Shown here: positions 1 through 42,909 of the stretch, one piece after another
How the letters are laid out: each line of letters starts with the position of its first letter
How positions within the stretch are numbered: the stretch's first letter is position 1
Virus record (IMG/VR): IMGVR_UViG_2923350032_000001
Location: 1 to 64,000 of that record
Source of the DNA: a virus
Lineage: Duplodnaviria; Heunggongvirae; Uroviricota; Caudoviricetes
Reading direction: 5' to 3' (one strand)
DNA: 64,000 bases
Made by a program: the position numbers and the translations under genes
The notes under the pieces: generated by a model
Seen by the model: only the letters and a program-made list of their open reading frames with translations
Told to the model about the DNA's origin: nothing
The model's database searches: none

Positions 1-2302
1 TACTGGTAGGGTCAGGGAACCGTTGTTCCAGTTCTGAAAACTACTGTCATAAAGCCGCGTTTAGCTTCACCAGTAGCAGCATCAGTAAAGCCTCCATATA
101 CTCTGTATAACTCTTTTCTAACACCACATTTTTGGTGTTTTTGTCACCAAACAGCGTTATGGCATCAATAGTTGAGCGTTCCAGATCCCGGAAAGTGACG
201 ATATTACCGAAGGTTTTAGTAGCGTCATAAATGCGGTTGGTGCGGGAAAATGCCTGCATCAGGCCGTGAAAACGCAAGTTTTTATCGACGAATAGCGTGT
301 TCAATGTTGGTGCATCGAAGCCGGTTAAAAACATCCCCACGACAATTAGCAGATCGATATCCTGATTTTAACCCGCTGGGCTAAATCACGATAGTAGTTC
401 TGAAAACCGTTACTGTCGGTGCTAAAGTTAGTTTTAAAATGGCTGTTATATTCACGAATTGCAGCGTCCAGAAACTCTTTAGCACTGCTGTCCATTGCGC
501 TGGTATCAAAAGTTTCATCGGAAATTTCACCAATGGCATTTTGTTCTTCATTGGCGGCAAAGGAGAAGATTGTCGCAATACGCAGCGGTTTATAGGTAGC
601 CGATTTATTAGCGGCTTCTTCTTGTAACCGTTTAAACGTCGCATAATAGGTTTTCGCGGCATCCACGCTGCTCACTGCCAACATAGCATTAAAACCTTTT
701 GAGCCAGGGAAGGTACGGTGAGTTTTCTGGCGGAAATTATTCAGAATATATTGCGTGATTTCCTGAATACGCATGGGATGAAGAAACGCCTGCTGATTTT
801 CAGCCGCACTTAGTTTTTTCTCGTCAGTTTCTGTCTCTAAAGACTTAAATTGTGGCCGCACATCGTTGTAGTCTACCTTGAATTTGAGCACTTTTTCGTC
901 ACGAATCGCATCGGTAATTACATACGAATGCAATTCACGACCAAATACGCTGGCGGTTGTTTCTGAGCCTAAGGCGTTTTCCGGGAAAATAGGGGTACCG
1001 GTAAAACCAAACTGATAATAGCGTTTGAATTTCTTCTTCAGGTTTTTCTGCGCTTCTCCAAACTGGCTGCGGTGGCATTCATCAAATATAAACACCACTT
1101 GCTGATTGTATACAGGCAGGTCGCTTTCTGCTTTCATCAGGTTATTAAGTTTCTGAATAGTGGTGACGATAATTTGTTATCGTCCTTATCCAGATTTCGT
1201 TTAAGACCTGCGGTATTTTCCGAGCCGTTGACGCTGTCTGGCGAAAAACGCTGATATTCCTTCATGGTCTGGTAATCGAGGTCTTTCCTGTCGACCACGA
1301 AGAAGACTTTATCAATAAAGTCCAGTTCAGTTGCCAGACGCGCGGCTTTAAAGCTGGTCAGTGTTTTACCGGAACCGGTGGTGTGCCAGATAAAGCCACC
1401 GCTTTCCGGTTTTGACCAGTTCTTCGCTGTAAAGGAACTCTTAATTTTCCACAGAATGCGCTCGGTGGCGGCAATCTGGTACGGTCGCATCACCAGTAGC
1501 GTCTGACTACTGTCAAAAACGCTGTAGTTCACCAGAACATTCAGCAGAGTATGTTTCTGGAAAAAGTAGCGGTAAAGTCTTTGAGGTCTTTAATCAGCGT
1601 GTTGTCTGATTTCGCCCAGTTCATGGTGAAGTCAAAACTGTTTTTATCGCGCTTTGTCGTGTTGGCAAAATAACGGGTATCGGTGCCGTTAGAAATGACA
1701 AACAGTTGCAGATACTTAAACAGGGAATTTTCGCTGTTAAAACTCTCTTTACTGTAACGATGTATCTGGTTGAAAGCCTCACGAATCGCCACGCCGCGCT
1801 TTTTCAGTTCGATTTGCACCAGCGGCAAGCCATTAACCAGGATCGTGACGTCATAACGGTTAGCGTGAGAGCCTGCCTGTTCAAATTGCTGGATAATCTG
1901 CACCTTATTGCGCATGAGATTCTTTTTATCTATCAAATAGATGTTCTCAAGTCGCTCGTCATCAAAAATAAAGTCGCAAATATAGTCGATATGGATTTTA
2001 CGGGTCTTATCCAGAATGCCATCGCTCGGGTTGTCCAGATACTGCTCCGTGAAACGCCGCCATTCGCTGTCATTAAACACCACACCATTGAGGCTCTGAA
2101 GCTGTTCCCGAACATTGGCCAGCATCTCTGACTGAGATTTTACGGCTATAAATTCATAGCCCTGATTTTGCAGGTCCTGAATCAGTTCACGTTCCAGGTC
2201 CGATTCGCTCTGGTAGCTGTCGCCTGTTGGTTCAGCTTTGATGTACTTATCAAGAATGATAAAGTTATTGGATTCAGCAATGGTGTGTGTCTGATGAGTC
2301 AT
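1..2302 (-). pseudogene. hsdR: Type I restriction enzyme R subunit (HsdR), split into at least four frame-shifted pieces; C-terminal part runs off the window start
   Basis: Colinear minus-strand ORFs 1541-2302 (HsdR N-domain), 1137-1532 (helicase motif I TGSGKT), 346-1137 (motif II FDECH), 47-340 (motif [10 protein letters not shown]) lie in different frames. Confidence 0.6.
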
Positions 2303-2423: not shown

Positions 2424-3554
2424 TTAATTACTGACAGTTTCAGGTTTCGGGAAACTGAACAGTAAATCACGGTAGTATTCGTATTGTTTCTGGCGCAACT
2501 CGATTTCACGCGGGAGACCTTCAGTGATGGAGTTGGTCAGGGTGTCGAATTTATCGAGTATTTCGACAATGCGAGCTTGTTCTTCTGAAGGTGGTACAGG
2601 TATTGGGAATTTTAAAAACATTGGTCGACGAAGTGAGGTAACCGATGAACTTACTGATGCTTTTTGAATATAGGTAAAAAAATATGCTGTTATATAGTGA
2701 TATACAAATCGCGGATTCATAAATGCATTTGGGACAATACGATATGCTCTCTGATGCAAAGCATATTTACCTTTAGCATAATGAAATACCTTCCCCACCC
2801 CGGCGCCATCTCCAGCCGTAATGATTGCTGTTTCATCAAAATCAAATACATTTAACTTTAATGGTTCACGTCCACGTGCATAAAAAATATATTTGCCATG
2901 TTCTATAGCATCTTGCGTATCATGGTTACCTGTTCCTATAACAGCCACTTCCCCCAAAGTCTTCCACTCAACCTCACCCTCTTTAAAACTCAACAACTGG
3001 TCGCGATAGTAATTGTACTGTTTTTTACGCATGTTAAGCTCAGCGGTAAGCTCAGCGGTAAGTGCAGTAAATTTATCCAGAATCCGAACGATTTCAGACT
3101 GGATGGCAAGGGATTTTTCTGGGGTATCCGGGCAGGGGATTGGTATCAAAATAGGTGATACATCACGTGGATAAACATGCGGAACACCACCACCACTCTT
3201 AAACTCATGGAGTTGTTGTTGCATATTCATCAAAAAATGATAGCAATATCGTGGTAACAAAATATTATGAGGTTTTACAGTAAATGCATCCGATACGAAA
3301 ATTGGTTCCTCCCACCAACTAACGAATCCCGCATACGCACCAGAACCTGCGATAACAATTGTTTGTCCGTCGCGATTACTAGTATTATGATAATAAGCTG
3401 GTGTACGTCCGCCAGCGACTACGGGGATGGTTCCATCAATAACATCTTTTTTTGTAATTGATGTGCCTCGCTTTAGTTCAGCTATACTGCCTAGTGTTTT
3501 CCACTCAACCTCAACCCCATCCAGCAATTTTTCCAGATAACTCATCTCGCTCAT
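2424..3554 (-). CDS. hsdS: Type I R-M specificity subunit HsdS, type IC (EcoR124-like)
   Basis: 376-aa ORF with two target-recognition halves; central TAELTAEL encoded by a 12-bp tandem duplication near 3040-3063; 4-bp overlap with hsdM. Confidence 0.85.
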
Positions 3555-5113
3555 TTCTGCACCTCGCAGCCTTCAATTTCAGCCACAATCGCATCAATAT
3601 CTTTGCGCAACTGGTCGATTTTGCTGACCGTGATTTTCAGCTCTGCATTCAACTCAGCGATATCGATAATTTCGCGAGTATCTTTCGCTTCAACATAGCT
3701 GCTCACCGACAGGTTATAGTCATTAGCGACAACGGCTTCAAACGCGACAGATTTCGCCAGATGGGCAACATCTTCCTTGCTGGCAAATACCTGCATAATC
3801 TGTTCGATATGAGCATCGGTCAGAATGTTGTTGTTAGTCTCTTTTTTGAACAGTTCGCTGGCATCAATAAACTGAACTTTGGTATCCGTTTTATGTTTAG
3901 ACAGCACCAGAATATTGACGGCAATAGTGGTGCCAAAGAACAGATTCGGTGCCAGTGAAATCACGGTTTCGACATAGTTATTATCAACCAGATACTGACG
4001 GATTTTCTGCTCCGCGCCGCCACGGTAAAAAATACCCGGGAAGCAAACAATCGCAGCACGACCTTTGGCAGAAAGATAGTTCAGCGCATGTAGTACAAAG
4101 GCGAAGTCAGCTTTTGATTTGGGGGCCAGAACGCCAGCCGGGGCAAAACGCTCATCGTTAATCAGAGTCGGGTCATCGCTGCCAATCCATTTCACCGAAT
4201 ACGGCGGGTTAGAAACGATGGCATCAAACGGTTTTTCATCTCTGAAGTGCGGTTCAGTCAGCGTATTGCCCAGCTTGATATCAAACTTGTCGTAGTTGAT
4301 GTTGTGCAAAAACATGTTCATACGCGCCAGGTTATAGGTCGTATGGTTGATTTCCTGACCAAAAAAACCTTCTTCGATGATATGGTCATCAAACTGTTTT
4401 TTAGCCTGCAACAACAGCGAACCGGAGCCTGCTGCCGGGTCGTAGATTTTGTTAACGTGGGTCTGCCCGTGCATAGCCAGTTGTGCAATCAGCTTAGAGA
4501 CGTGCTGCGGTGTAAAGAACTCGCCGCCTGACTTACCGGCATTCGCCGCATAGTTAGAAATCAGGAACTCATAGGCGTCACCGAACAGGTCAATCTGATG
4601 TTCGTGGAAGTCACCAAGTTTTAGCCCTTCAACCCCTTTCAGAACTGCAGCCAGGCGGGCATTTTTATCTTTAACGGTGTTACCCAGGCGGTTACTGGTA
4701 GTATCGAAATCAGCAAACAAACCTTTGATGTCAGCTTCTGAAGGGTAACCGTAAGCAGAACTTTCGATAGCAACGAAGATGCTGTTTAAATCCGCATTCA
4801 GTCTGTCATTGGTATTTGCTTTCGCAGCTACGTTGCAGAAAAGCTGACTGGGGTAGATGAAGTAACCTTTGGTTTTGATGGCATCGTCTTTAATGTCATC
4901 AGTAATTACGCTGTCATCCAGTTTCGCATAACAGATACTGTCATCACCGGCTTCAATATAGCTGGAAAAATTTTCGCTGATAAAACGGTAAAAAAGCGCG
5001 CCCAAAACGTACTGCTTAAAATCCCATCCATCGACTGAACCCCTGACATCGTTAGCAATTTGCCAGATTTGACGATGAAGCTCTGCACGTTGTTGAATAC
5101 TTGTCATTTTCAT
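3551..5113 (-). CDS. hsdM: Type I R-M N6-adenine DNA methyltransferase HsdM
   Basis: 520-aa ORF with NPPY catalytic motif (VSNPPYS) and SAM-binding region; translationally coupled to hsdS. Confidence 0.9.
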
Positions 5114-10810: not shown

Positions 10811-11032
10811 GTGGCTACTATCCCTACCCCTGCTCATCCTGAATTTATCTGGCGCTTTTACTCCTGCCAAAAACGTCACTATCACTTCGTTATTGCACCG
10901 ACAGAAGATGAGGCACGTTCTCAGCTTCCTGACGCCCCATGTATTTTCTCTGCCCGTTTTTCCACTGATTCACGCAATTCTCTCAGTTACTGGTGCCTCC
11001 CTGTTAACGCTTCTGCTCAGGAGGGACTATGA
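10811..11032 (+). CDS. Icd-like small protein (cell-division inhibitor / Ash family), extra copy
   Basis: 73-aa ORF, paralog of ORF 24261-24482 (EFIWRFYSC..HYHFVIA.TEDEARSQLPD..CIF.ARFST.SRNSLSYW shared). Confidence 0.6.
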   Translation: MATIPTPAHPEFIWRFYSCQKRHYHFVIAPTEDEARSQLPDAPCIFSARFSTDSRNSLSYWCLPVNASAQEGL

Positions 11033-12141
11033 GAACATCGTTAGTTACCCGTGAAGAGATGATCGAGGCAATTGAACAGCACACTGCCTGTATCAGTACC
11101 AGGGATATACCTGGCGTTATTGCCAACTACTTCATGATCACCAAACAACTTTACCGGAGAAAGGACAAGAACGCGGTTCACCGTATCCTGCTGTCTGATA
11201 TCCGCGAATACCTGCTCGAACAGGGGCATCTGAATTACGCAACCGTCGCAGCCGAAGCACGCAAGGAGGCACACAGAATGAAAGCAACTAACGTTAAATC
11301 AGAAAAAATTTATGCACCTTCAGTTCAGGAATCGGAACTGGTGGTTGTTCAGAATCAGCCGGATGAAATTCCCGTTCTGGAATGGCAGGGAGTACGTGTC
11401 GTGACAACCGAAACTCTTGCTAGAGGGTATGGGGTCGATGAAGCCAATATTCGCAACAATTTGTCTCGCAACCTTGACCGCTTTGAAGAAGGTAAGCATT
11501 ACTTTCTTCTAACAGGTTTAAAATTAAGAGAATTTAAGAACAGAGTAACCGGAAGTTACTCTGTTGGTAAGAACGCCAGAAGCCTTACACTCTGGACAGA
11601 GCGCGGCGCTGCACGCATGTCTAAGATCGTGGACACAAATGAAGCATGGGCATTCTTTGAAAAACTGGAAGACAGCTACTTCCGACAAAAAGAACAGCAA
11701 CCGATCGCAATCCCCCAGACGCTTCCTGAAGCCCTACGCCTGGCTGCCGAACTGGCTGAACAAAAGCAGCTTCTGGAACAGAAAGCCCACCAGCTAAATC
11801 AGCAGCTGGTGGCCGCCGCTCCTAAGGTCGATTTTGCCGACCGGGTATCAGTAGCTAAAGGGATCCTGATTGGGAATTTTGCAAAGGTTGTTGGACTTAA
11901 GCAAAACGCGCTGTTTGCCTGGTTACGGGAGAACGGCATTCTGATAGCGTCCGGCGGGCGTAAAAATGTGCCGTTCCAGCAGTACATAAACGCCGGATAT
12001 TTCACAGTGAAAGAAGTGGTGCTGGATGATGAAGATGGCTACCAGATACGGCTGACGCCCCAATTAACGGGGAAAGGACAACAGTGGTTGACGCGTAAAC
12101 TGCTCGATGCTGGCTTGTTAAAACCGGTGGCGGCTGAATAA
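11029..12141 (+). CDS. Antirepressor-like protein (Ant/KilA-N domain plus Ant C-terminal domain)
   Basis: 370-aa ORF coupled to the icd-like gene; C-terminal 150 aa nearly identical to ORF 25081-25524 and similar to the C-terminus of KilA. Confidence 0.7.
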   Translation: MRTSLVTREEMIEAIEQHTACISTRDIPGVIANYFMITKQLYRRKDKNAVHRILLSDIREYLLEQGHLNYATVAAEARKEAHRMKATNVKSEKIYAPSVQESELVVVQNQPDEIPVLEWQGVRVVTTETLARGYGVDEANIRNNLSRNLDRFEEGKHYFLLTGLKLREFKNRVTGSYSVGKNARSLTLWTERGAARMSKIVDTNEAWAFFEKLEDSYFRQKEQQPIAIPQTLPEALRLAAELAEQKQLLEQKAHQLNQQLVAAAPKVDFADRVSVAKGILIGNFAKVVGLKQNALFAWLRENGILIASGGRKNVPFQQYINAGYFTVKEVVLDDEDGYQIRLTPQLTGKGQQWLTRKLLDAGLLKPVAAE

Positions 12142-15820: not shown

Positions 15821-16396
15821 ATGAAAACAATCGAACAAAAAATTGAACAGTGCCGCAAGTGGCAGAAGGCAGCCAGAGAACGAGCGATCGCTCGGCAACG
15901 GGAGAAGTTGGCTGATCCGGTCTGGCGAGAATCTCAATATCAGAAAATGCGGGATACTATCGACCGCCGTATCGCTAAACAGAAAGAGCGCCCACCAGCC
16001 AGCAAAACGCGGAAAAGTGCGGTAAAAATAAAATCTCGTGGCTTGAAGGGACGAACACCGACGGCAGAGGAACGGCACATAGCCAATGCTCTTGGCGCTC
16101 TCCCCTGCATTGCGTGCTATATGCATGGAGTAATATCTGAAGAGGTGTCTCTGCACCATATTTCCGGTCGTACCGCGCCTGGTTGTCACAAAAAGCAATT
16201 GCCACTTTGTAGATGGCACCACCAGCATGCAGCACCGGCTGAAGTAAGAGCAAAATACCCCTGGCTGGTCCCTGTTCATGCCGATGGTGTGGTTGGAGGC
16301 AAGAAAGAATTCACCCTGCTGAACAAGTCAGAGATGGAGTTACTGGCTGACGCCTATGAGGGGTCGTCTCAGAAAACGGAAAATAAAGCACGCTAA
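15821..16396 (+). CDS. ref: Ref, recombination enhancement function (HNH endonuclease), 3' end replaced by transposon sequence
   Basis: 191-aa [29 protein letters not shown]... with Cys/His HNH motifs; the last 11 codons and stop lie inside the Tn21-family inverted repeat. Confidence 0.85.
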
Positions 16397-16397
16397 G
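16360..16397. repeat. Tn21-family 38-bp terminal inverted repeat
   Basis: GGGGTCGTCTCAGAAAACGGAAAATAAAGCACGCTAAG. Confidence 0.85.
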
Positions 16398-19359
16398 CCG
16401 GTTGCAGAGGCCGTAGCGGCCTGAACTTCCCCGCGCCGATCTTGGCGCTGCTGCGCCATAGGTAATCACCGGTCAGGTTGATGTGCTCCCAGCCGAGTGG
16501 CGACAGGTACTGCAATAGCGAGTCATCGACGGCATGACCATTGCCGCGCAACGCATGCGCCGCACGCTCCAGGTAGACCGTGTTCCACAGCACGATGGCC
16601 GCCGTCACCAGGTTGAGGCCGCTGGCCCGGTAGCGCTGCTGCTCGAAACTGCGGTCACGGATTTCACCAAGGCGGTTGAAGAACACGGCACGGGCCAGCG
16701 CATTGCGCGCCTCGCCCTTGTTCAGCCCGGCATGCACGCGGCGGCGTAGCTCGACGCTTTGCAGCCAGTCGAGGATGAACAGCGTGCGCTCGATGCGGCC
16801 CAACTCGCGCAGCGCGACGGCCAAGCCGTTCTGGCGCGGGTAGCTGCCGAGTTTCCTGAGCATCAGCGAGGCCGTCACCGTGCCCTGCTTGATCGAGGTG
16901 GCCAGCCGCAGGATTTCGTCCCAATGGGCGCGGACGTGCTTGATGTTGAGCGTGCCGCCGATCATCGGCTTGAGCGCGTCATAGGCGGCATCGCCCTTCG
17001 GGATGTAGAGCTTGGTGTCGCCCAGGTCGCGGATGCGCGGCGCGAAGCGGAAGCCCAAGAGGTGCATCAGGGCGAAGACGTGATCGGTGAAGCCCGCCGT
17101 GTCGGTGTAGTGCTCCTCGATCCGCAGGTCGGATTCGTGGTACAGCAGGCCGTCGAGCACGTAGGTTGAGTCGCGCAGGCCGACATTGACCACCTTGGTG
17201 TGGAATGGCGCGTATTGGTCGGAGATGTGGGTGTAGAAAGTCCGTCCTGGGCTGCTGCCATATTTTGGGTTGATGTGCCCCGTGCTCTTTGCCTTGCTAG
17301 CGGTTCGGAAATTCTGTCCGTCCGATGATGATGTGGTGCCATCGCCCCAGTGCCCGGCAAAGGGATGCCGAAACTGAGCGTTGACCAGTTCAGCCAACGC
17401 TGTCGAGTACGTTTCGTCGCGGGTATGCCAGGCTTGCAGCCAAGCGAGCTTCGCGTAGGTCGTGCCGGGGCAGGACTCGGCCATCTTGGTCAGGCCCAGG
17501 TTGATCGCGTCGGCCAGGATCGTGGTCAACAACAGGTTCTTGTCCTTGGCCAGATCGCCCGATTTCAAGTGCGTGAAGTGCCGGGTGAAGCCCGTCCACT
17601 CATCGACTTCGAGCAGCAGTTCGGTGATCTTGACGTGCGGCAGGACCATGGCTGTCTGGTCTATCAGCGCCTGCGCGGTGTCGGGCACCGCCGCATCCAG
17701 CGGCGTGATCTTCAAGCCCGACTCGGTGATGATGGCATCCGGCAGGTCGTTGGCTGCCGCCATGCGGTTGACGGTGGCAAGTTGTGCTTCCAGCAGCGTC
17801 AGCCGCTCATGCAGATATTGTTCGCAGTCGGTGGCCACGGCCAGCGGCAATTCGCTGGACTGCTTGAGGCTGGTGAACTTCTCGGGCGGTACCAGGTAGT
17901 CCTCGAAGTCCTTGAACTGGCGTGAACCCTGCACCCAGATGTCGCCCGAGCGCAGGGAGTTCTTCAACTCGGACAGCGCGCACAGTTCGTAGTAGCGCCG
18001 GTCGATGCCGGCGTCGGTCATCACCAGTTTCTGCCAGCGCGGCTTGATGAAGCCGGTCGGTGCATCGGCTGGCAGCTTGCGGGCGTTGTCGGTGTTCATG
18101 CCGCGCAGCACCTCAATGGCATCAAGCACGTTTTTGGCGGCGGGCGCGGCCCGCAGCTTGAGCACGGCAAGGAATTCCGGTGCATAGCGGCGCAGGGTGG
18201 CGTAGCTCTCGCCGATGCGATGCAGGAAATCGAAGTCATCGGGTTGCGCGAGCTTCTGCGCCTCGGTGACGCTCTCGGCAAAGGAATCCCAGGACATGAC
18301 GGCCTCGATGGCGGCAAACGCATCGCGGCCTGATTGCTTGGCGTCGATCAGCGCCTGACCGATGCGCCCGTACAGACGTACCTTGGCGTTGATGGCCTTG
18401 CCTGACGCCTGGAACTGCTGCTGATGCTTATTCTTGGCAGCGTTAAACAGCTTACCCAGGATGCGGTCGTGCAGGTCGATGATTTCGTCGGTGACGGTGG
18501 CCATGCCCTCGGTGGCCAGCGCCACGAGAGTGGCGTAGCGCCGTTGCGGCTCGAATTTGGCCAGGTCGGCGGGTGTCATCTGGCCGCCCTCGCGGGCAAT
18601 CTTGAGCAGGCGGTTCTGGTGAACCAGCCGCTCGATGCCGGTAGGCAGATCGAGTGCCTGCCATGCCTTGAGGCGTTCGATGTGTTCCAGCATATGCCGC
18701 GAATTTGGCTTGGCCGGAGACTGGCGCAACCAAGCCAACCAGGTCGTCTTGCCGTTGTCCCGGCGCTTGAGCAGATCGTCGAGGCGGCGGCGATGCGCGT
18801 CCGCCAGTGGTTCGGCCAAGGCGTCGTAGATGCGCCGGTTAGCACGGGTGATCGCCTCTGCACTCGCCCGCTCGACGGCGTTGAGGGCGGGCAGAATGAC
18901 CGACTGCCGCCGCAGGTGCCCGATCAAGGCGCTGGCCAGCACGATGCCTTTGTCGGTTTGCATCGCCAGCTCGGTCAGCATCTGGACGGCCTGCCGGTAA
19001 TGGCTCATGGTGAAGGGCCGGAAACCGAACACGGTTTGCAGCTCGCTCAGGTGCTCGCGCCGGGTCTGCTCCCGCTGGCCGTACTCGTTCCAGCTTTCGA
19101 CGCCGACCTTGAGCTGGTCGGCGACCAGCTTCAACAAGGGCGGGAACGGTAGTTCATCGACGCCCAGGATGACGCCGGGAAAGCGCAGGTAACAGAGCTG
19201 CACCGCGAAGCCCAGCCGATTGGCTGGCCCGCGCCGCTGTCGGATGATCGAGAGGTCGGTATCGTTGAATGTGTAATGTCGGATCAGGTCGTCCTTGGAG
19301 TCCGGCAACGCCAGCAGGCTTTCCCGCTCGGCGGCGGACAGGATGGAACGACGTGGCAT
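16393..19359 (-). CDS. tnpA: Tn3-family transposase TnpA (Tn21-like)
   Basis: 988-aa [34 protein letters not shown]... Confidence 0.95.
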
Positions 19360-19361: not shown

Positions 19362-19922
19362 TTACTGATCCGTTCTCAAGTATTGATACAGGGTTTCGCG
19401 ACTGATTCCGAATTCACGAGCAAGCTTGGTCTTTTGCTCGCCAGCCTCGATACGTTGGCGCAGTTCGGCAATACGCTCAGACGACAGGGATTTCTTCCTG
19501 CCACGGTAAGCCCCGCGTTGCTTGGCGAGCGCAATACCCTCGCGCTGACGCTCGCGGATCAGGGCGCGCTCGAACTCGGCGAACGCGCCCATCACCGAGA
19601 GCATCAGGTTCGCCATCGGAGAGTCTTCGCCAGTAAAACTGAGGTGTTCCTTGACGAATTCGATATGCACGCCGCGTTGTGTCAGCGTTTGCACGATCCG
19701 GCGCAAATCATCGAGATTGCGCGCCAGGCGATCCATGCTATGCACCACCACGGTGTCGCCGGTGCGGGCGAAGCTTATCAGCGCTTCCAGTTGCGGACGC
19801 TTGACATCCTTGCCGGATGCCTTGTCGCTAAAAGCGCGATCAACCTTGACGCCTTCCAGTTGCCGTTCCGGGTTCTGGTCGAAGGTGCTGACCCTGATAT
19901 ACCCAATGCGCTGTCCAGTCAT
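19362..19922 (-). CDS. tnpR: Serine resolvase TnpR (Tn21-like)
   Basis: 186-aa [24 protein letters not shown]... with C-terminal HTH. Confidence 0.95.
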
Positions 19923-20154: not shown

Positions 20155-20432
20155 GGCACTGTTGCAAATAGTCGGTGGTGATAAACTTATCATCCCCTTT
20201 TGCTGATGGAGCTGCACATGAACCCATTCAAAGGCCGGCATTTTCAGCGTGACATCATTCTGTGGGCCGTACGCTGGTACTGCAAATACGGCATCAGTTA
20301 CCGTGAGCTGCAGGAGATGCTGGCTGAACGCGGAGTGAATGTCGATCACTCCACGATTTACCGCTGGGTTCAGCGTTATGCGCCTGAAATGGAAAAACGG
20401 CTGCGCTGGTACTGGCGTAACCCTTCCGATCT
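20155..20432 (+). mobile_element. Truncated IS26 (first 278 bp: IR plus 5' part of tnpA)
   Basis: 14-bp IR GGCACTGTTGCAAA at 20155-20168; tnpA N-terminal 72 codons identical to the complete copy, then abrupt junction. Confidence 0.9.
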
Positions 20433-21252
20433 GGCACTGTTGCAAAGTTAGCGATGAGGCAGCCTTTTGTCTTATTCAAAGGCCTTACATTTCAAAAACT
20501 CTGCTTACCAGGCGCATTTCGCCCAGGGGATCACCATAATAAAATGCTGAGGCCTGGCCTTTGCGTAGTGCACGCATCACCTCAATACCTTTGATGGTGG
20601 CGTAAGCCGTCTTCATGGATTTAAATCCCAGCGTGGCGTTGATTATCCGTTTCAGTTTGCCATGATCGCATTCAATCACGTTGTTCCGGTACTTAATCTG
20701 TCGGTGTTCAACGTCAGACGGGCACCGGCCTTCGCGTTTGAGCAGAGCAAGCGCGCGACCATAGGCGGGCGCTTTATCCGTGTTGATGAATCGTGGGATC
20801 TGCCACTTCTTCACGTTGTTGAGGATTTTACCCAGAAACCGGTATGCAGCTTTGCTGTTACGACGGGAGGAGAGATAAAAATCGACAGTGCGGCCCCGGC
20901 TGTCGACGGCCCGGTACAGATACGCCCAGCGGCCATTGACCTTCACGTAGGTTTCATCCATGTGCCACGGGCAAAGATCGGAAGGGTTACGCCAGTACCA
21001 GCGCAGCCGTTTTTCCATTTCAGGCGCATAACGCTGAACCCAGCGGTAAATCGTGGAGTGATCGACATTCACTCCGCGTTCAGCCAGCATCTCCTGCAGC
21101 TCACGGTAACTGATGCCGTATTTGCAGTACCAGCGTACGGCCCACAGAATGATGTCACGCTGAAAATGCCGGCCTTTGAATGGGTTCATGTGCAGCTCCA
21201 TCAGCAAAAGGGGATGATAAGTTTATCACCACCGACTATTTGCAACAGTGCC
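20433..21252 (-). mobile_element. Complete IS26 (820 bp, IS6 family)
   Basis: 14-bp IRs at 20433-20446 and 21239-21252; internal 234-codon transposase. Confidence 0.95.
20485..21189 (-). CDS. tnpA: IS26 transposase
   Basis: [34 protein letters not shown]... 234 aa; the ORF-track N-terminal extension MLMELH is rejected. Confidence 0.95.
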   Translation of the reverse strand: MNPFKGRHFQRDIILWAVRWYCKYGISYRELQEMLAERGVNVDHSTIYRWVQRYAPEMEKRLRWYWRNPSDLCPWHMDETYVKVNGRWAYLYRAVDSRGRTVDFYLSSRRNSKAAYRFLGKILNNVKKWQIPRFINTDKAPAYGRALALLKREGRCPSDVEHRQIKYRNNVIECDHGKLKRIINATLGFKSMKTAYATIKGIEVMRALRKGQASAFYYGDPLGEMRLVSRVFEM

Positions 21253-24255: not shown

Positions 24256-24260
24256 TAACT

Positions 24261-24482
24261 ATGGTTAATGCCAATCCTTGCGCACGCCAAGAATTCATCT
24301 GGCGTTTCTATTCCTGTAAAAAACACCACTATCACTTCGTTATCGCAGCAACAGAAGACGAAGCACGCTCTCAATTGCCTGATGGCCCCTGCATTTTTAC
24401 TGCCCGTTTTTCAACTAACTCGCGCAATTCACTTAGTTACTGGAGCCTCCCCTTCTCTGCCGACGTTCAGGGGGGTTTATGA
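24261..24482 (+). CDS. icd: Icd-like protein
   Basis: 73-aa ORF, 4-bp overlap with the ant start. Confidence 0.65.
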   Translation: MVNANPCARQEFIWRFYSCKKHHYHFVIAATEDEARSQLPDGPCIFTARFSTNSRNSLSYWSLPFSADVQGGL

Positions 24483-28492: not shown

Positions 28493-29835
28493 CCCATAAG
28501 CGCTAACTTAAGGGTTGAACCATCTGAAGAATGCGACGCCTCGGTGCCTCGTTAAGACGATGCCTCGCGTTCTTCAATTGCGTTTTGTAGGCTGTCAGGG
28601 ATACTGTCCCACGAATGGCCACCTGTAAGCTCCAGATGACCATTTTTGTTATTCTCCACAACGAGTTAGTTCTTCTTTTCGGATCCGGCACTTCTGGGGG
28701 GGAAATCCAGCGATGGCTGGATTATGTCGTCAATTAAAAATGCGGCGAGTAGATTAGCAAATATCCACGCTTTCGCGAGTTCAGGTTCCTTTGCACGCAA
28801 AGCATCCAGGTGCAGCAAACTTTTGAGCCGCTTAAAAGCCAGTTCAATTTGCCATCGCAGACGGTAACAATCAGCCACTTGCTCTGCTGAATATTCATCT
28901 TCCGGTAATGATGTTAGCAATAGCACATGGCCCGCTGCTTCCAGCGTTTCCGCCTGAACTACTCGTCCTTTTCGACGATTCTCGCTGAGCAGTCGGGTTT
29001 TACTGATTAATGCTTTTTCGGGAGGAAGTGATACGGCAATGAGACGTGCCGGAAAGGGAGCTCCGGCTTTTTTATTACCTGAATTGCCTATCATTACAGT
29101 GGTTTCACCGTTCTTACCGCAATCCAGCCCGCGCAGAAAACCCATCATGTCAAAGCGCATTCCTTCTGCAGTTAACCAGCGCAATCCTCGCCAGTGAACC
29201 CGGACGATATAATCAGCTTCTCCAAAAGCAAGTGAGCGGATACATTCGGGACGCGAACCGAATCCCCGGTCAGCAATGCGTATCTCGTCTGCCGTTTGCG
29301 CAAATCGGTCCAGCCGTTCAGCGTCTCTGCTGTCGGTTAGCTCAAAATCAGTGAACTGACAGGTATGAGGATCATATCCCATATGTAGTCGCCATTCAGC
29401 GCTGCCGCCCCCGGGCGCACTGATTGCTGTTCCATCGACAAGACGCAATCTCTTTCCGCTTGTACAACCCGTAACTGCGGCGCGTACAGCAAGTGTTTGT
29501 GCGGCAAGTATGCCAAACCAGTCGGCGGCATTCCGCAGCCGCTTCAGGAGAGCCACGTCAGATAATGTTGCAACGTCATGGAGCTGAGCCCATGCAGTGA
29601 CTTCACGTAATGACATCCCCCCGGGGCCGTAAGCCAGCCCCAGACGTAGCAGAGTTGCAGCATCACGAATTTCGCGGCGGCGGGTTAGAGCCCCGGCATT
29701 ACGTGCCGAAGTATCCAGTTCTTCGGGCTTACCAATATGGGCCAGAATTGCTGACCAGTTATCGTGAGAGTAATTCATCGGCACGTTAAATCATATCAGG
29801 CGTAATACCACAACCCTTAAGTTAGCGCTTATGGG
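28493..29835 (-). mobile_element. IS186 (IS4 family)
   Basis: Terminal inverted repeats CCCATAAGCGCTAACTTAAGGGTTG at both ends; GC-rich GGGG...CCCC target context. Confidence 0.85.
28666..29784 (-). CDS. IS186 transposase
   Basis: 372-aa ORF MPMNYSHDNWSAILAHIGKPEELDTSARNAG... Confidence 0.85.
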   Translation of the reverse strand: MPMNYSHDNWSAILAHIGKPEELDTSARNAGALTRRREIRDAATLLRLGLAYGPGGMSLREVTAWAQLHDVATLSDVALLKRLRNAADWFGILAAQTLAVRAAVTGCTSGKRLRLVDGTAISAPGGGSAEWRLHMGYDPHTCQFTDFELTDSRDAERLDRFAQTADEIRIADRGFGSRPECIRSLAFGEADYIVRVHWRGLRWLTAEGMRFDMMGFLRGLDCGKNGETTVMIGNSGNKKAGAPFPARLIAVSLPPEKALISKTRLLSENRRKGRVVQAETLEAAGHVLLLTSLPEDEYSAEQVADCYRLRWQIELAFKRLKSLLHLDALRAKEPELAKAWIFANLLAAFLIDDIIQPSLDFPPRSAGSEKKN

Positions 29836-37049: not shown

Positions 37050-38015
37050 TTATTTTCCTGCGGACATTTTCTCAATGATTTTTTTTATTGCTTCGTCAAT
37101 TTCAGTTTGCACTTCAGATGGGAGTCTGGAGAACTCGTAGGCGACTACCCGTTTTTTCGGATCGGTCTTCTTTCGTGCGTACTGGCGTCGGTCAGAGAAA
37201 TCTCGCAGCTTCTCTACCACTACAGATTTAACCGGCGCAGGTTTCAGGCTTTTGCTTTCCGCTTTGAAGATAGCCAGTATCTTCGCTTTATCCTCTTTCG
37301 CGCCCTCAGTCTCTGCAATTCGCTCGCGCACCGTATCAACCAGTTCTCCAATCGGTACGTTTTTAGCGTTAGCATCTTCGGAGATCTGGAGCAGCAACTG
37401 GTAATCAGGCAGGGCGAGATCGCTGGCAACAGGGAAGACAGCAATCATCTCATCCGGCACCGCCGCAGCCTGGAAAGCTCGCGTCACTTTAGCCTTTGAG
37501 ATGTTCTCAGCTCGGGCGATCTCTTCTTTGGTCATATTCTTGCCGTACATAACCTCGAAGCGTTTACCCAGCTCGCGCAGGGTGTGTTCGCGGGCTGTCT
37601 GGATATCAATGGCCAGCTGGCGGGCATCTGCCAAGCTGATCTCATCTTTCGTCACCAGAATCTCAAATTTCGTTTCATTGAAGATACACGCAGCGCGGCG
37701 ACGTGATCCGTCCAATACCTCAATGCGCTCCCCAACCATACGGCCGATAGCCGGGAAGAACTGTTGCAATTTAATGGTGCGGGAAATATCGCTTACCGAC
37801 TCAGGGGTGAGCAGAGACTGATCGCGGCCGTTAACTGCCGGGTCAACGAACGTGCGCGACTCAATCTCACCACTCAGCACAACGGTAAGCAAAAATTTAG
37901 CCTGGCGGCCAGATTTTAGGGTAAAGGTTTTGGTGCCTTCACTGCCTTCAAGCATGCGAGCAAACTCGGAGCTATTCTTGCCCAGCACTCGTCCACGGGA
38001 AACTATTTTTTTCAT
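37050..38015 (-). CDS. parB: Partition protein ParB
   Basis: 321-aa ORF with ParB box (ILDGSRRRAA) and HTH; divergent from remembered P1 ParB. Confidence 0.85.
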   Translation of the reverse strand: MKKIVSRGRVLGKNSSEFARMLEGSEGTKTFTLKSGRQAKFLLTVVLSGEIESRTFVDPAVNGRDQSLLTPESVSDISRTIKLQQFFPAIGRMVGERIEVLDGSRRRAACIFNETKFEILVTKDEISLADARQLAIDIQTAREHTLRELGKRFEVMYGKNMTKEEIARAENISKAKVTRAFQAAAVPDEMIAVFPVASDLALPDYQLLLQISEDANAKNVPIGELVDTVRERIAETEGAKEDKAKILAIFKAESKSLKPAPVKSVVVEKLRDFSDRRQYARKKTDPKKRVVAYEFSRLPSEVQTEIDEAIKKIIEKMSAGK

Positions 38016-39223
38016 GCCGCCTCACCCCTAACAAACTCAATTCGATCAAACACAGCCTTAGTGAAACGCTCGGCCTCGGTTCGTGCCTTCTTCAGCGCCT
38101 CTGCACTGCCTGGATACGATTGCGGGTTGGCACTGATTACGGTGTCGAAAGACTCGCCGCATCGCTCAAATCCATCCAGACGAGGCAGAGAAGAGTCCAG
38201 AATGTTGCTGGCGTAAACCTCACGCGCAAGGCTGTGTGATGTCTCGTGATCGCGCTTGCCGGTCATCTTCGACATAAAACCAATGCTGGCGCTTAAACGC
38301 GGTTCTACGCCTTCCTCCTCCAGTTGCTCCAGCATTTCTGGCAGACGGGTGAGATATTTCAGTGTTGAGTGGAAGTCAACCTGGGCTGGTGGGGTAGGGG
38401 TAAGCAGCAAATCGCTGGCCGCCAGACCGTTGAGCAGGAACGGATCCAGGTGTGGACCGGTATCAATAAAGATAAAGTCATAATCATCCGCAACACGATC
38501 AATGATATTGCGGCGAAGGATTTCGTACTGATTTTGTCCGGGAAGATGCTCTTCAACCAGCTCTTTCCATTGGCTGGCAACAAAGCCATCGTCGATAGAG
38601 GCTGGAATCACGTCTACGCCAGGAACGATGGTCGGACGAATCACCTCTTTGCGTAGCGTCTCCGCGTCCAGGTCGTTCAGCATCGCCTGCGCGGCGGTTT
38701 CCAGGATGGAACCAATACTGTGAGTATGGTCGAGGAACATTGTGCTGGATGCCTGAGGGTCAAGGTCAATTACCAGAATGCGCAGATCGTGACGCAGTAA
38801 ATCCTGATGCACACGCAGAGCGTGCGCCAACGTGACTGTGGAAACCGTTTTGGATACGCCACCCTTCAGGTTTACGACAAAAATAACGTAAGGCGATTTG
38901 TGAATGTCGCGATATTTGGGGATCTTACGGTGGGCATAGATATCAATGACGTTCTGGATGGTCAGCGCGTACTGTTCAACGTTACCGACCTGTTTCTTGT
39001 TGAACTGGTACCCATCATCTTCCATCTCTTTGATGGCCTGCTCCACAATGCGGCGGCTCAGCTTCGGCAACTTTGCCACAGCGTTACGAGTGAACGTCTG
39101 ATAATACTCGGTCTGATTGAACTCTTTGCGCTGATCTTCAATATCCTGACTCATGGCCTTAAGTAATGCGCTTGCACGAAGAGCTATGGTGCCGACACCG
39201 CCGTAATCGCGTTTCATCATCAT
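38012..39223 (-). CDS. parA: Partition ATPase ParA (type Ia)
   Basis: 403-aa ORF with deviant Walker A (KGGVSKT) and C-terminus matching P1 ParA (LPRLDGFERCGESFDTVISANP). Confidence 0.9.
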   Translation of the reverse strand: MMMKRDYGGVGTIALRASALLKAMSQDIEDQRKEFNQTEYYQTFTRNAVAKLPKLSRRIVEQAIKEMEDDGYQFNKKQVGNVEQYALTIQNVIDIYAHRKIPKYRDIHKSPYVIFVVNLKGGVSKTVSTVTLAHALRVHQDLLRHDLRILVIDLDPQASSTMFLDHTHSIGSILETAAQAMLNDLDAETLRKEVIRPTIVPGVDVIPASIDDGFVASQWKELVEEHLPGQNQYEILRRNIIDRVADDYDFIFIDTGPHLDPFLLNGLAASDLLLTPTPPAQVDFHSTLKYLTRLPEMLEQLEEEGVEPRLSASIGFMSKMTGKRDHETSHSLAREVYASNILDSSLPRLDGFERCGESFDTVISANPQSYPGSAEALKKARTEAERFTKAVFDRIEFVRGEAA

Positions 39224-39332: not shown

Positions 39333-39618
39333 GATGTGTGCTGGAGGGATGATGCAGGACCAGAATGTGCGATAGAGGGAAGTCGCATTGAATTATGTGT
39401 TGTGGAGGGATCGCTTGTATCAAATATGTGTGCTGGAGGGAAAGACAGAGAATTACATGTGCACTGGAGGGAAAAACGGATGGACAGATGTGTGCTGGAG
39501 GGAAAGTCTGAGCAAACTGCGGGGCGTCCCCCTCCAGCGCACATCAAAAACGGGAAATTGGACAAGCCTTCCCGGCAGCACACATTTTTTGAATGCAGCT
39601 GCCCTCCAGCACACACTT
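39333..39618. repeat. incA: incA: about nine 19-bp RepA-binding iterons (copy-number control)
   Basis: Repeats of GATGTGTGCTGGAGGGAAA and its complement in both orientations. Confidence 0.85.
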
Positions 39619-40477
39619 ATTCGGGGAGTTTCAGCTTTGGATTGCGAGAATGGACGATTACAAAACTTTCCCGGCCTTTCTTCTCAATTGAACAGTCGAG
39701 ATAGCCGATTGTTTTAAGCTGTTCTATCGCTTTCTTAATGATACGGTTTTGCTCGCCAACAGCTGACTGCAAAGCCAGGCGCTCACGGATTCGGGCGAAA
39801 GATAGCGGCAACGGATTCTGCGGAAGGCTTTCGATGAAAGTGTAAATGGCTTGTGCAGCTTCTTTCTTCGGAAGGGCACGCAAGGCGTGGTGTTGCAACA
39901 GAACGCGATAATCAAGCTGGAACAGCTCCCACAGCTTCGAATCAGCCTCCAGCTCTATCAGATCAAGGTCAGCATCAAAACGACCGACCTTTAGCAGACC
40001 AGTCTGATAGCCGCCTTTAGCATCTTTTCCGCGCTTAAAAGCGATACCCTTGTTACGTAAGCGTCCAAGTGATTCATGAATGGTTAAACGCAGTTTCGCA
40101 TCCAGACGTTTTGAGGGGAAACCACAGGCTTTAGCGAATTCCTGAAACGATAACTGGATGGTGTTTGAGGACAAGCCGTATTTGCTGAACGCGTAGATGA
40201 CACCGATCCACGTTTTGAAATCAGTATCCATATCGAGTCGAGGACCGGTGATTTTAATATCATCGTAACCCTCGGCTTTAGCTATCTCCAGCTGGGAAAA
40301 CGCTTTGGTGGCATCAATCTCTTTACTTTCTCCTTTGCTCTTTGATGGCTTCGGCACGAATACCCCCAAGCGCATCAACGCTACAGGCTGCACAGTGTTG
40401 TTTGAATTAACTGTTAGTTCTTTTGCCTTACTTTCAATGTCTGCGTAAAGAATATCGGAGATAAATGATTGATTCAT
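39617..40477 (-). CDS. repA: Plasmid replication initiator RepA
   Basis: 286-aa ORF MNQSFISDILYADIESKAKELTVNSNNT... matches remembered P1 RepA; flanked by incA and incC iterons. Confidence 0.95.
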   Translation of the reverse strand: MNQSFISDILYADIESKAKELTVNSNNTVQPVALMRLGVFVPKPSKSKGESKEIDATKAFSQLEIAKAEGYDDIKITGPRLDMDTDFKTWIGVIYAFSKYGLSSNTIQLSFQEFAKACGFPSKRLDAKLRLTIHESLGRLRNKGIAFKRGKDAKGGYQTGLLKVGRFDADLDLIELEADSKLWELFQLDYRVLLQHHALRALPKKEAAQAIYTFIESLPQNPLPLSFARIRERLALQSAVGEQNRIIKKAIEQLKTIGYLDCSIEKKGRESFVIVHSRNPKLKLPE

Positions 40478-40760: not shown

Positions 40761-40795
40761 AACCGGCCAACGTAGCCGGTTGGAAGGGAGTCGTA

Positions 40796-41188
40796 TTATT
40801 CTACGCTTTCGATGAGAAGACCATGTTCATAGCATTTAAGCTCATCGCCCTCGTACAGGAATTGGTATCCAATACCACCATATTCAGGCACATTAGGGAA
40901 TAACTCATCACTTACCGAAGAACAAATCACACCAATGCAGCGATCAACGCCTTCTCGTTCTTCAGTGCTGAAAAAATCCTCTTCGGTAAGAACATGAGTA
41001 CATTGCTCATCAGCATAGGTCAGAAATACATGCTCGATGCAATCCGGGTGTTTTAAACCAAGCTGATCGGCAAGCTCGAAAGCATGACGGTATTGTTCAG
41101 ATCCTGGCTTGCCAACAGTGATTTGCTCAATTTTGTAGATTGAAGTCGTTTTGTTGATAGTTTGCTTTACTGTTACTTTATCAGACAT
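40796..41188 (-). CDS. Hypothetical protein (P1 upfA position)
   Basis: 130-aa ORF downstream of the replicon. Confidence 0.4.
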   Translation of the reverse strand: MSDKVTVKQTINKTTSIYKIEQITVGKPGSEQYRHAFELADQLGLKHPDCIEHVFLTYADEQCTHVLTEEDFFSTEEREGVDRCIGVICSSVSDELFPNVPEYGGIGYQFLYEGDELKCYEHGLLIESVE

Positions 41189-41199: not shown

Positions 41200-41532
41200 T
41201 TAGTTACCGCTGATAGCGCGGTTGTAATCATTAACGTTGCGATTCTTCCTGTTAATCCCCATCAGCATCGTTTCTGTATCAAGGATATAGGCTGGCAGAT
41301 CATCAAAATATTCACTGCTAAACTCTGGCATCCTGCACATAAATGCACTTTTGGGGGCAGGGTGATTAACCTTTGTCGGCGTCGGCGTTAAATTCGCTGA
41401 TCGACTCCCGGAGCAACCGCTGAGTGTCAACAGGAATGCGCTGGCGAACACTACCCGACGCAACCAGTTGTTTCTGAACTTCAGCTTTTCGTTCCATTTG
41501 TCTGTCTGCATACTTCGCTTGTTCTGATTCAT
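41200..41532 (-). CDS. Lipoprotein (P1 mlp-like; candidate o-spanin)
   Basis: Lipobox LLTLSGC, Pro-rich mature part; overlaps the 3' end of the upstream TM/coiled-coil gene in another frame. Confidence 0.5.
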   Translation of the reverse strand: MNQNKRSMQTDKWNEKLKFRNNWLRRVVFASAFLLTLSGCSGSRSANLTPTPTKVNHPAPKSAFMCRMPEFSSEYFDDLPAYILDTETMLMGINRKNRNVNDYNRAISGN

Positions 41533-41788
41533 TTTTCACTTCCTGGCTGTGAAAATGTTGATCCGCTTTATTCATCGTCTCAATGGTCTGGTTAAGATCA
41601 ATGATTGACTTATCGCGCTCCTTAACAGCCTGATCAAGGCTGCCAATTTTTTCCAAGGCGTGCTTTAACTGATAACGTTCCCATGCAAACCCAGCACCAA
41701 CAAGTGCGCAAATCAGGACAAGAACACCAGTAACAGCAAGTTTCTCCTTCAAAGACAAAGCTGTTTTTAACGTTGAAAAAAACGACAT
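41366..41788 (-). CDS. N-terminal TM plus coiled-coil protein (candidate i-spanin)
   Basis: 140 aa; single TM helix then periplasmic coiled coil; 3' overlap with the lipoprotein gene. Confidence 0.45.
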   Translation of the reverse strand: MSFFSTLKTALSLKEKLAVTGVLVLICALVGAGFAWERYQLKHALEKIGSLDQAVKERDKSIIDLNQTIETMNKADQHFHSQEVKNESEQAKYADRQMERKAEVQKQLVASGSVRQRIPVDTQRLLRESISEFNADADKG

Positions 41789-41827
41789 TTCTTCCTCCTG
41801 AAGAAAAATTATCTGTGAAGTCCTTTG

Positions 41828-42616
41828 TTAAAGTGTCGCCTTGTTTAATTCATCAAGAACAGAATCAGGAACCAAAGCGGCAACTGCGCTGGCTGTGCTG
41901 GCCTTATTTGCTGATGCTTCCGCAAGCGCGGTACCGATAGCATGGTTATAAGCAGTTATGGCTACGCTGGCGCTTTCCTTCGCTCGTTCATACTGCTGTT
42001 GCAATGCTGCTACCGGTACTGTTGTCTGGTCGAAAAAAGCACCAAATTGTTCAGTTGCTTCCTTCAGTGCTTCAACTTGTTGTTCTGTCAGTGCTGGTGG
42101 GGGAGTGACTGCGCCGCCACCTGAATCAGAGCCTGACGAGCTTCCTGAGCCTGTGTTAAGGGTCTGGTTAATGTCCCCCATAACAGCGACTAAACTCGAC
42201 GTATTAAGCGCATTTACAGCGTCCTCAAGCGATTTCGTTGTAGTCGCGTCACCAATGGCAATAGAGATCGGCAGTTTTGAAACTTCTCGCTCATTAGCAC
42301 GACAGTAAACATCCCAACCAATATCGAGTTGAAGGAGCATTGACAGATCAGCATAACCAGCCAACAGCTCCGCGTGCTGAGTTGCCAGCCCTCCAATATT
42401 CGTTAAACCGGTTGTAGTTGTTCTGATCGTTGAAACATAACTGGTAATAGTGTCGGGATAGACAATTGTATCCAGAATTAATCCGGTCAATTCTTCTGCA
42501 AGCAGTTTTGCTGTGTTAGCACTGTTTCGTGCCGATGTTATGGCACCAGGTGTTTTCATCCCACCGGCGGCGGCCAATTTTTTATATGCGGATAACTGGT
42601 AGTCTTTTTCCAGCAT
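41828..42616 (-). CDS. Hypothetical protein
   Basis: About 262 aa from the internal Met (MLEKDY); Gly/Ser-rich linker. Confidence 0.35.
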   Translation of the reverse strand: MLEKDYQLSAYKKLAAAGGMKTPGAITSARNSANTAKLLAEELTGLILDTIVYPDTITSYVSTIRTTTTGLTNIGGLATQHAELLAGYADLSMLLQLDIGWDVYCRANEREVSKLPISIAIGDATTTKSLEDAVNALNTSSLVAVMGDINQTLNTGSGSSSGSDSGGGAVTPPPALTEQQVEALKEATEQFGAFFDQTTVPVAALQQQYERAKESASVAITAYNHAIGTALAEASANKASTASAVAALVPDSVLDELNKATL

Positions 42617-42624
42617 GATATCTC

Positions 42625-42909
42625 CTAACTTACCTGAACCAGGCCGTCTCCGGACGCTACGGTAGATCCGCATGAAACAGGGTCACCAACGCATACGATC
42701 CCTTTACCATTGACGGTAAACCATGCCCTGGTTGATATAGCTTGCCCACCGTGCGTACTGTTTCCATCGGTATGCTGTGCATATTGCTTACCATCAACTA
42801 ACACTTCGACTCCGTTGACTTTAAGTAGTGGTTCACTCTCTACAGGAGGCCTGGATGGGAATCCTCCGTGCCCCGAACAAATGCTGTCTTTTGTTGCAAT
42901 ACTCGCCAC
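42625..42909 (-). CDS. PAAR-domain protein (tail spike tip)
   Basis: 94 aa with paired Cys/His motifs (CSGHGG, HTDGNSTHGG, CVGDPVSCGS). Confidence 0.6.
   Translation of the reverse strand: MASIATKDSICSGHGGFPSRPPVESEPLLKVNGVEVLVDGKQYAQHTDGNSTHGGQAISTRAWFTVNGKGIVCVGDPVSCGSTVASGDGLVQVS

Follow-up and report, generated by a model that had tools for sequence, protein, structure and literature searches.

The overlapped ppfA/mlp gene pair of a P1-like element, a predicted two-component spanin

The ppfA/mlp gene pair

In the 64,000-nucleotide stretch analysed here (positions 1 to 64,000 of IMG/VR record IMGVR_UViG_2923350032_000001, hereafter the window), two protein-coding genes overlap in different frames on the minus strand, within a region that is 97.1% identical in nucleotide sequence to positions 62854-64854 of phage P1 and approximately 94-96% identical to P7, RCS47, SJ46 and other P1-like phage-plasmids. 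The upstream gene (41366..41788) encodes a protein of 140 amino acids with 93.6% amino acid identity to P1 PpfA, and the downstream gene (41200..41532) encodes a protein of 110 amino acids with 95.5% identity to P1 Mlp, in both cases over the full length (tblastn). An original prediction from the sequence had proposed a spanin-like gene pair at this place, and both of its open reading frames (ORFs) were found at exactly the positions it had assigned them. The mlp gene starts at offset 256 of ppfA, in the +1 frame, and runs 166 nucleotides past the ppfA end, leaving a dual-coding overlap of 167 nucleotides (41366..41532, minus strand) that comprises ppfA codons 86-140 and mlp codons 1-55, where the latter encode the signal peptide and the first 16 residues of the mature lipoprotein. 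On the same strand, ppfA is preceded by the Shine-Dalgarno sequence AGGAGG (41794..41799) and mlp by a Shine-Dalgarno-like AGGAAG located within ppfA (41539..41544); both sites are marked in Table S1 of Kongari et al. (2018; PMC6139136).

The pair is P1 ppfA/mlp, which is already known and catalogued as a predicted spanin. In P1, ppfA (gp064) and mlp (gp063) have the same lengths, overlap, lipobox and flanking genes, and the window proteins differ from theirs by nine substitutions in PpfA and five in Mlp, which fall mostly in the part of PpfA near the transmembrane (TM) segment and in the Mlp signal peptide. The reference annotation (NC_005856) describes ppfA as P1_gp064, "possible periplasmic function", and mlp as P1_gp063, for which the RefSeq label is "Rz-like spanin", and several GenBank records of P1-like phages carry Rz/Rz1 labels for the pair. 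In Table S1 of Kongari et al. (2018; PMC6139136), P1 (NC_005856.1) is listed as "ovl" and represents a 'P1' family of overlapped two-component spanins, where gp064 is the overlapped i-spanin (140 amino acids, periplasmic domain of 104 amino acids, no periplasmic cysteine and one cysteine in the TM domain) and gp063 is the overlapped o-spanin (110 amino acids, 71 when mature, lipobox TLSG|C, one periplasmic cysteine and a LipoP cleavage at 39). Bednarek et al. (2022; PMC9025707) also give ppfA and mlp as the P1 spanin genes, partially overlapping and part of an operon that has no linkage to the remaining lysis genes, although with the o- and i-spanin labels swapped; a passage of the same paper credits their identification to Summer et al. 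(2007) on the basis of predicted features. The P1 transcriptome paper does not mention ppfA or mlp (PMC8201110). The comparison with curated spanin sets and with P1 mlp that had been suggested as a check therefore places the window pair with a listed spanin, and the spanin interpretation is supported by the orthology to P1 ppfA/mlp, by the curation of the latter as an overlapped i-/o-spanin and by the RefSeq and PHROG labels. With this record and the evidence set out below, the pair, orthologous to P1 ppfA/mlp, is very probably a two-component spanin that belongs, like P2 LysB/LysC, to the overlapped type.

Protein features

PpfA contains a single hydrophobic segment, LAVTGVLVLICALVGAGFA (residues 17-35, nucleotides 41684-41740), with a Kyte-Doolittle 19-residue mean of 2.48. 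The 17 residues leading up to it include three lysines and one glutamate and carry a net positive charge, and the 104 residues that follow it are 36% charged; from these features PpfA is predicted to be a type II inner-membrane protein. An AlphaFold2 model built from a 12-sequence alignment (mean predicted local distance difference test score, pLDDT, 72.6) has a long, unbroken helix from residue 13 to residue 110 and, beyond a non-helical linker at 111-119 (SGSVRQRIP), a second helix from 120 to 138. As modelled, this helix-linker-helix after the TM domain is the layout described for i-spanins.

Mlp begins with a 39-residue lipoprotein signal, in which a long N-region of positive charge is followed by a short hydrophobic core; its lipobox is LSGC (nucleotides 41413-41424), where the lipidated residue would be Cys40. 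The residues at +2 and +3 are Ser-Gly, so the Asp signal for inner-membrane retention is absent. The description of the 110-residue product as a lipobox-bearing lipoprotein holds, whereas the description "Pro-rich" is true in moderation: mature Mlp, of 71 residues, has six prolines, five of them among its first 30 residues, far fewer than lambda Rz1, which has 40 residues when mature. Mature Mlp has one further cysteine, Cys66 (nucleotides 41335-41337).

Compared with the features by which two-component spanins are recognised (Summer et al., 2007; Kongari et al., 2018), the i-spanin candidate has a single N-terminal TM domain and a periplasmic domain predicted to be mainly helical, while the o-spanin candidate has a lipobox cysteine without Asp at +2 and is encoded by a gene that overlaps the i-spanin gene in the +1 frame. 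The expected minimum of one periplasmic cysteine is supplied by Mlp Cys66.

Relation to P2, lambda and T4 spanins

Profile comparisons link both proteins to the spanin of phage P2. PpfA matches phrog_89, "Rz-like spanin", over nearly its whole length (1.3e-22), and P2 LysB (NC_001895) falls in the same PHROG (5.8e-61). Mlp matches phrog_30284 (2e-74) and phrog_456 (6e-5), and P2 LysC matches the same two in reverse order (phrog_456 at 1.7e-31, phrog_30284 at 5e-4). Mlp also aligns directly with P2 LysC by BLASTP (37% identity over 68 amino acids, E = 2e-8), in an alignment that takes in signal peptide, lipobox and Pro-rich stretch as well as the second cysteine, where MCRMP in Mlp stands opposite LCPMP in LysC. 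Cys40, Cys66, Pro69, Asp78-Leu79, Ile83 and Leu90 are invariant in all clades and in LysC. Among NCBIfam models, the top match of PpfA is the LysB model TIGR03495 (18.4 bits) and that of Mlp is the LysC model NF038368 (14.3 bits). Since direct comparison of PpfA with LysB gave nothing significant (see below), the link of the i-spanin to P2 depends on shared PHROG membership and on the partner gene. By sequence, the pair is best described as a remote relative of P2 LysB/LysC that falls outside those equivalog families and outside the lambda Rz/Rz1 family.

The overlapped class, where the o-spanin gene starts in the +1 frame within the i-spanin gene and extends beyond it, was defined previously (PMC3556154), and its prototype is P2 LysB/LysC. 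The P2 proteins are similar in size (141 and 96 amino acids, compared with 140 and 110 here), the overlap is 146 nucleotides in P2 and 167 nucleotides here, and in both the o-spanin gene is in the +1 frame and passes the end of the i-spanin gene. The two systems differ in their cysteines, where P2 LysB has two periplasmic cysteines and PpfA has none, and LysC has four besides the lipidated one and Mlp has one. Their locations differ too: P2 lysBC belong to a lysis cassette and come directly after holin Y, endolysin K and lysA, while the P1-type pair is flanked by upfB and upfA beside the plasmid origin. With lambda Rz/Rz1, the spanin characterised by experiment, the pair shares a type II inner-membrane protein of predicted helix-linker-helix form, a small outer-membrane lipoprotein, an o-spanin gene in the +1 frame and an o-spanin periplasmic cysteine. 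However, Rz1 is wholly embedded in Rz, whereas mlp overlaps ppfA and extends beyond it, the lambda PHROGs (13 and 3198) differ from those of the window pair, and there is no significant sequence similarity. Of the Rz/Rz1-like arrangement first proposed, the i-spanin/o-spanin part is therefore retained, while the embedded lambda architecture gives way to the overlapped P2 lysB/lysC type. Phage T4 offers a third comparison: in PseT.3/PseT.2, as in the window pair, the i-spanin has no cysteine in its periplasmic part and the o-spanin supplies all of them, and the T4 spanin nevertheless functions (PMC6139136), but the T4 genes are separated and show no sequence similarity to the window pair.

One further Mlp-like match in the window (10523-10645; tblastn, Mlp residues 32-72, 39% identity, E 4e-4) is outside any ORF and was discounted as a chance match.

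Conservation and selection

The pair was compared across 84 related loci, made up of 83 P1-like IMG/VR or genome contigs and Cronobacter phage JK004. Both frames are open and the lipobox is present in every one of the 84, and likewise in five more distant loci (89 in total); in a single locus among the 84 both proteins are shorter because of an in-frame 6-nucleotide deletion. A second clade consists of JK004 and loci L090-L092, whose PpfA proteins are 56-61% identical; here a lipoprotein ORF of 109-110 amino acids lies in the same +1 frame, and the distant clade has the lipobox variants LNGC, LNAC or LSAC. An exhaustive HMMER search with a PpfA profile against 1.84 billion representatives gave only 35 hits, among which no chain of intermediates led to LysB, so the PpfA family, as sampled by this search, is narrow. 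A scan of genome contigs gave only three close relatives. The HMMER search did recover two remote full-length PpfA relatives, P0101 (~31% identity) and P0107 (~29%), each accompanied by a +1-frame lipoprotein ORF (109 or 111 amino acids, lipobox LSAC or LSSC) in which the mature-domain motifs FMC(R/T)(M/L)P, DL(P/A)(A/G)YI and N(R/N)KN..VN.YN recur. It had been reasoned that loss of the TM/coiled-coil ORF in relatives that keep the lipoprotein would speak against a spanin; both ORFs are kept in every relative examined, down to ~30% PpfA identity.

Selection was assessed between clades as the ratio of nonsynonymous to synonymous divergence (dN/dS) by the Nei-Gojobori method. The part belonging to ppfA only has a dN/dS of 0.14-0.25 in the ppfA frame, and the part belonging to mlp only has 0.05-0.13 in the mlp frame; read in the other two frames, these parts give ~0.7-5 and contain stop codons. 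Within the overlap, eight of nine pairs have a dN/dS of 0.11-0.25 when read in the ppfA frame and the ninth has 0.81, whereas the mlp frame gives values above 1; it is therefore the PpfA C-terminus that is constrained, leaving the Mlp signal peptide free to vary. Both ORFs are real genes under purifying selection, beyond chance.

In several of these relatives the o-spanin ORF was truncated or missed by the gene calls. It can be read at 4260-4592 in L004, at 6260-6589 in L090 and L091 and at 6278-6607 in L093, yet it was called as 52 amino acids in L090 and not at all in L091 and L093, and as 44 amino acids in JK004 (gene_24).

Gene neighbourhood and a candidate late promoter

The P1 gene order upfC(PAAR)-upfB-ppfA-mlp-upfA-oriR-repA is kept in the window. 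The first gene of this minus-strand cluster is the upfC orthologue (42625..42909), which encodes a PAAR/T4 gp5.4-like spike-tip protein, followed by the upfB orthologue (41828..42673), the ppfA/mlp pair and, as last gene, the upfA orthologue (40796..41188; phrog_1453). A terminator-like hairpin with a T-run (40761..40781, minus strand) follows upfA just before oriR, beyond which lies repA (39617..40477). The pair was rightly described as standing beside the plasmid replicon, with the qualification that upfA and the hairpin separate mlp from oriR and repA. The upfC-upfB-ppfA-mlp core is kept in distant clades, and in L093 (GCA_002920175.1) this block is followed by a different gene set, in which no Rep3-type repA is present, so that the linkage of the pair is to upfB/upfC and not to the replicon itself. 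In every P1-like clade it is joined to upfC and upfB, and never to a holin or endolysin gene.

The spacer between upfB and ppfA, of 39 nucleotides, contains a candidate Lpa-type late-promoter-like motif, AAAGGACTT-CACA-GATAAT (41808..41826, minus strand), which scores 8.7 bits with a weight matrix made from ten annotated P1 late promoters (-22 box AAGTGACTT, 4 nucleotides, TAnAAT). With this matrix, the window yields LP23, LP26, LPpac, LPsit and LPpmgL at scores of 11-23 bits, and about eight unexplained matches of 8.7-bit strength in 128 kb of two-strand sequence; the chance of one such match in the upfB-ppfA spacer on the right strand is therefore ~0.003, as an estimate. The orthologous sites of the second clade (5964-5982) are near-consensus, with AAGTGACTTACCGGAGAAT at 17.9 bits in L091 and AAGTGACTTCCCGGAGAAT at 18.8 bits in L092, and in seven of seven clade representatives the spacer has diverged except in the motif columns, which are conserved. 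Upstream of upfC the late-promoter matrix found nothing, and a scan with the sigma-70 consensus gave no convincing promoter upstream of upfC or ppfA. From these sites we infer an Lpa-type late promoter for ppfA-mlp(-upfA) whose strength would differ between clades, high in some and low in the P1/E. coli clade. The lpa gene is present in the window (tblastn). UpfC has been predicted to be a virion spike tip (PMC9024508), which likewise points to lytic-cycle expression of the upfC-upfB-ppfA-mlp region.

State of the element

Mapped on P1, the window runs from 87970 to 94800 and from 1 to 2616, then through mobile elements (window ~16360-21242), and then from P1 position 45983 onward. Approximately 43 kb of P1 (2616-45983) is absent, which includes res/mod, darB, portal, pro, lyz, lydA-E, ssb, cin, tail fibres, baseplate, sit and tub. 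In agreement with this, Prt, Sit, S and Tub have no tblastn match in the window, where PacA, gp22 and gp23 are present by the same method. The mobile elements comprise a Tn3-family transposon remnant with tnpA (16393..19359, minus strand) and tnpR (19362..19922, minus strand), a partial IS26 (20200..20451) and an IS26 tnp gene (20485..21207, minus strand). The IS26-pmgC junction was found in neither PLSDB nor the RefSeq complete E. coli genomes; it may come either from a unique deletion or from the assembly having been joined across IS26. The lysis genes of P1 itself are dispersed, with lyz-lydD-lydE at 20.0-20.9 kb, lydC-lydA-lydB at 30.4-31.5 kb and the ppfA/mlp pair at 63.4-63.9 kb; the absence of lysis genes from the window is thus explained by their being unlinked in P1 and by their loss from this element through a Tn3-family/IS26-associated deletion.

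The window begins with a type I restriction-modification locus (1-5214), which stands in place of P1 pmgT..humD and replaces P1 84482-87970; this suggests that the window covers nearly the whole replicon. In this locus hsdM (3551..5113) and hsdS (2424..3554) are on the minus strand, and hsdR is broken up over four or more consecutive ORFs (47..340, 346..1137, 1137..1532 and 1541..2302), so that it is either a frameshifted pseudogene or a product of indel errors in the sequence.

Judged by its gene content, the element looks like a defective P1-derived plasmid, which differs from P1 in lacking the P1 lysis genes and most morphogenesis genes. Without its partner lysis genes and most virion genes, the spanin pair is intact but probably idle cargo.

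Proposed mechanism and alternative explanations

The mechanism proposed here is drawn by analogy with lambda Rz/Rz1; complex formation, disulfide dimerisation, membrane fusion and the timing of expression are all inferred. PpfA would sit in the inner membrane, its N-terminus cytoplasmic and its mostly helical 104-residue domain reaching into the periplasm. Mlp would be lipidated at Cys40, cut by signal peptidase II and sent by Lol to the outer membrane, as expected because Ser, not Asp, is at +2, where it would probably form a homodimer via Cys66. The C-terminal regions of PpfA and Mlp would then bind each other, and the resulting complex would span the periplasm through the peptidoglycan mesh. 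Destruction of the peptidoglycan by the P1 holin LydA and the SAR-endolysin Lyz would free these complexes, which in turn would fuse or disrupt the outer membrane and so complete lysis.

A number of observations weigh against a spanin. The only cysteine of PpfA, C27, lies inside the TM segment, which leaves no cysteine in the periplasmic part, although T4 PseT.3 also lacks a periplasmic cysteine and the T4 spanin is functional all the same; the 39-residue signal peptide of Mlp is unusually long and is marked "too long signal sequence" in Table S1 of Kongari et al. (PMC6139136). At the level of sequence families, PpfA and Mlp fall short of the NCBIfam curated cut-offs (18.4 compared with 92.75 bits and 14.3 compared with 27 bits, respectively), comparisons of PpfA with P2 LysB (BLASTP and hhalign) and with lambda Rz (hhalign) were not significant, and neither protein rises above noise in Pfam. 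The late-promoter match upstream of ppfA in the window and P1 is weak, at 8.7 bits compared with 11-22 bits for the annotated late promoters. The pair does not lie in a lysis cassette, which is the usual but not an obligatory location, and tblastn with P1 Lyz and LydA-E found no match in the window, as had been claimed at the outset for holin and endolysin genes. In P1 itself, the spanin function of ppfA/mlp is experimentally unverified (Bednarek et al., 2022; PMC9025707). A genome-wide CRISPR interference (CRISPRi) screen found both genes non-essential for plaquing, with efficiencies of plating of 0.24 and 0.19 for mlp and 1.3 and 1.2 for ppfA. Spanins are generally dispensable under many standard laboratory conditions, and for this reason the non-essentiality is weak evidence against a spanin.

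Some of these same observations would fit an envelope module of the plasmid prophage, acting in exclusion, serum resistance or another lysogenic conversion and not in lysis, in which the spanin-like features would be those of any inner-membrane protein and lipoprotein. The pair adjoins the plasmid replication/partition region and is far from lyz and lydAB in P1, the P1 record has only predicted sigma-70 promoters for the cluster (P1ppfA and P2ppfA, inside upfB) with no late promoter annotated, and the CRISPRi result agrees. Such a module is nevertheless improbable, given that Mlp is homologous specifically to the o-spanin P2 LysC and PpfA shares its PHROG with LysB, that the +1-frame overlapped architecture is kept to ~30% identity, that a late-promoter-like motif is conserved upstream and that the pair has the same transcriptional orientation as the predicted virion spike-tip gene. 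A use or regulation unlike that of spanins in lysis cassettes, with a separately tuned envelope function besides lysis that is perhaps partly independent of Lpa or expressed in the lysogen, is conceivable for a pair so constantly joined to upfC and upfB and preceded by a late-promoter-like element of its own, but we would give it only a slight probability.

It is quite unlikely that the pair in this particular element is itself already decaying, as a non-functional remnant of a degraded P1 prophage-plasmid. Such decay would suit the fragmented hsdR, the several insertion sequence (IS) and transposase insertions and the absence of ~43 kb of P1, in which the portal, tail fibre and tape measure genes are missing together with all the lysis genes. 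However, the pair retains intact versions of both ORFs, the lipobox, Cys66 and the Shine-Dalgarno sites of both genes, two of the related loci share its Mlp allele, and a PpfA cluster with 98% identity to this one has 61 member sequences; supplied with an endolysin and a holin, the pair would probably still work. The idea of only one real gene, over which the other frame (lipoprotein or TM) is open by chance, is in effect refuted. The frequent omission or truncation of mlp by gene callers, as in JK004, L090 and L091, might have suggested it, but the non-overlapping parts are each under strong purifying selection in their own frame only, conservation of the lipobox and of the mature-domain motifs reaches as far as P2 LysC, and both frames are open in 89 of 89 relatives examined. 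A two-component spanin of the overlapped type stays as the favoured explanation of the pair, at the confidence given above.

Other features of the window

Several further differences from P1 were noted in the window. The parA/parB region (37050-39223, minus strand) has ~64% nucleotide identity to P1, whereas the flanking repA and gene 23 have 97-100%, and it appears from this that a partition module of a different type has been swapped in. The Dmt DNA methyltransferase (44259-47300, plus strand) has 1013 amino acids compared with 754 in P1; an in-frame insertion of ~1 kb (~44492-45513) contains Hint (residues 77-126) and LAGLIDADG_3 (residues 298-361) domains and looks like an intein with a homing endonuclease within dmt. 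The stretch 47551-50830 lacks the P1 tRNA genes, plp, upl, tciABC and ban, and ARAGORN found no tRNA; in their place are an IS605-family TnpB-like ORF (47665..48840, plus strand) and an ORF (49685..50620, plus strand) with the pPIWI-associating nuclease domains pP_pnuc_1/2, which is a possible defence gene.

Between pacB and c1, where P1 has almost nothing, an extra icd/ant-like module is located at 10448-12175, which has 70-80% nucleotide identity to P1 48497-49721 and includes an ORF of 370 amino acids (11029..12141); the regular c4-icd-ant region is also present (23935-25511). Two more transposase genes are found on the minus strand: an IS91-family Y2 transposase (58170-59369), whose insertion point is P1 position 80306, and a DDE_Tnp_1 transposase (28666-29784) at the place of P1 rlfA/rlfB. 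At the place of P1 simABC there is an ORF of 410 amino acids (21964-23196, minus strand) whose product has an N-terminal TM segment, short repeats rich in Pro, Leu and Lys, and a DUF559/MTES_1575 endonuclease-like domain.

Significance

The value of the finding is mainly one of annotation, in that the pair in this element is the catalogued P1 spanin. It also illustrates that o-spanin genes are routinely overlooked or shortened by gene callers, as seen in JK004 and in the metagenome calls used here. The motif conserved upstream of ppfA supplies a concrete hypothesis on the timing of the pair, which may be transcribed as an Lpa-dependent late unit, and the P1-type arrangement indicates that spanin genes can stand far from the remaining lysis system.

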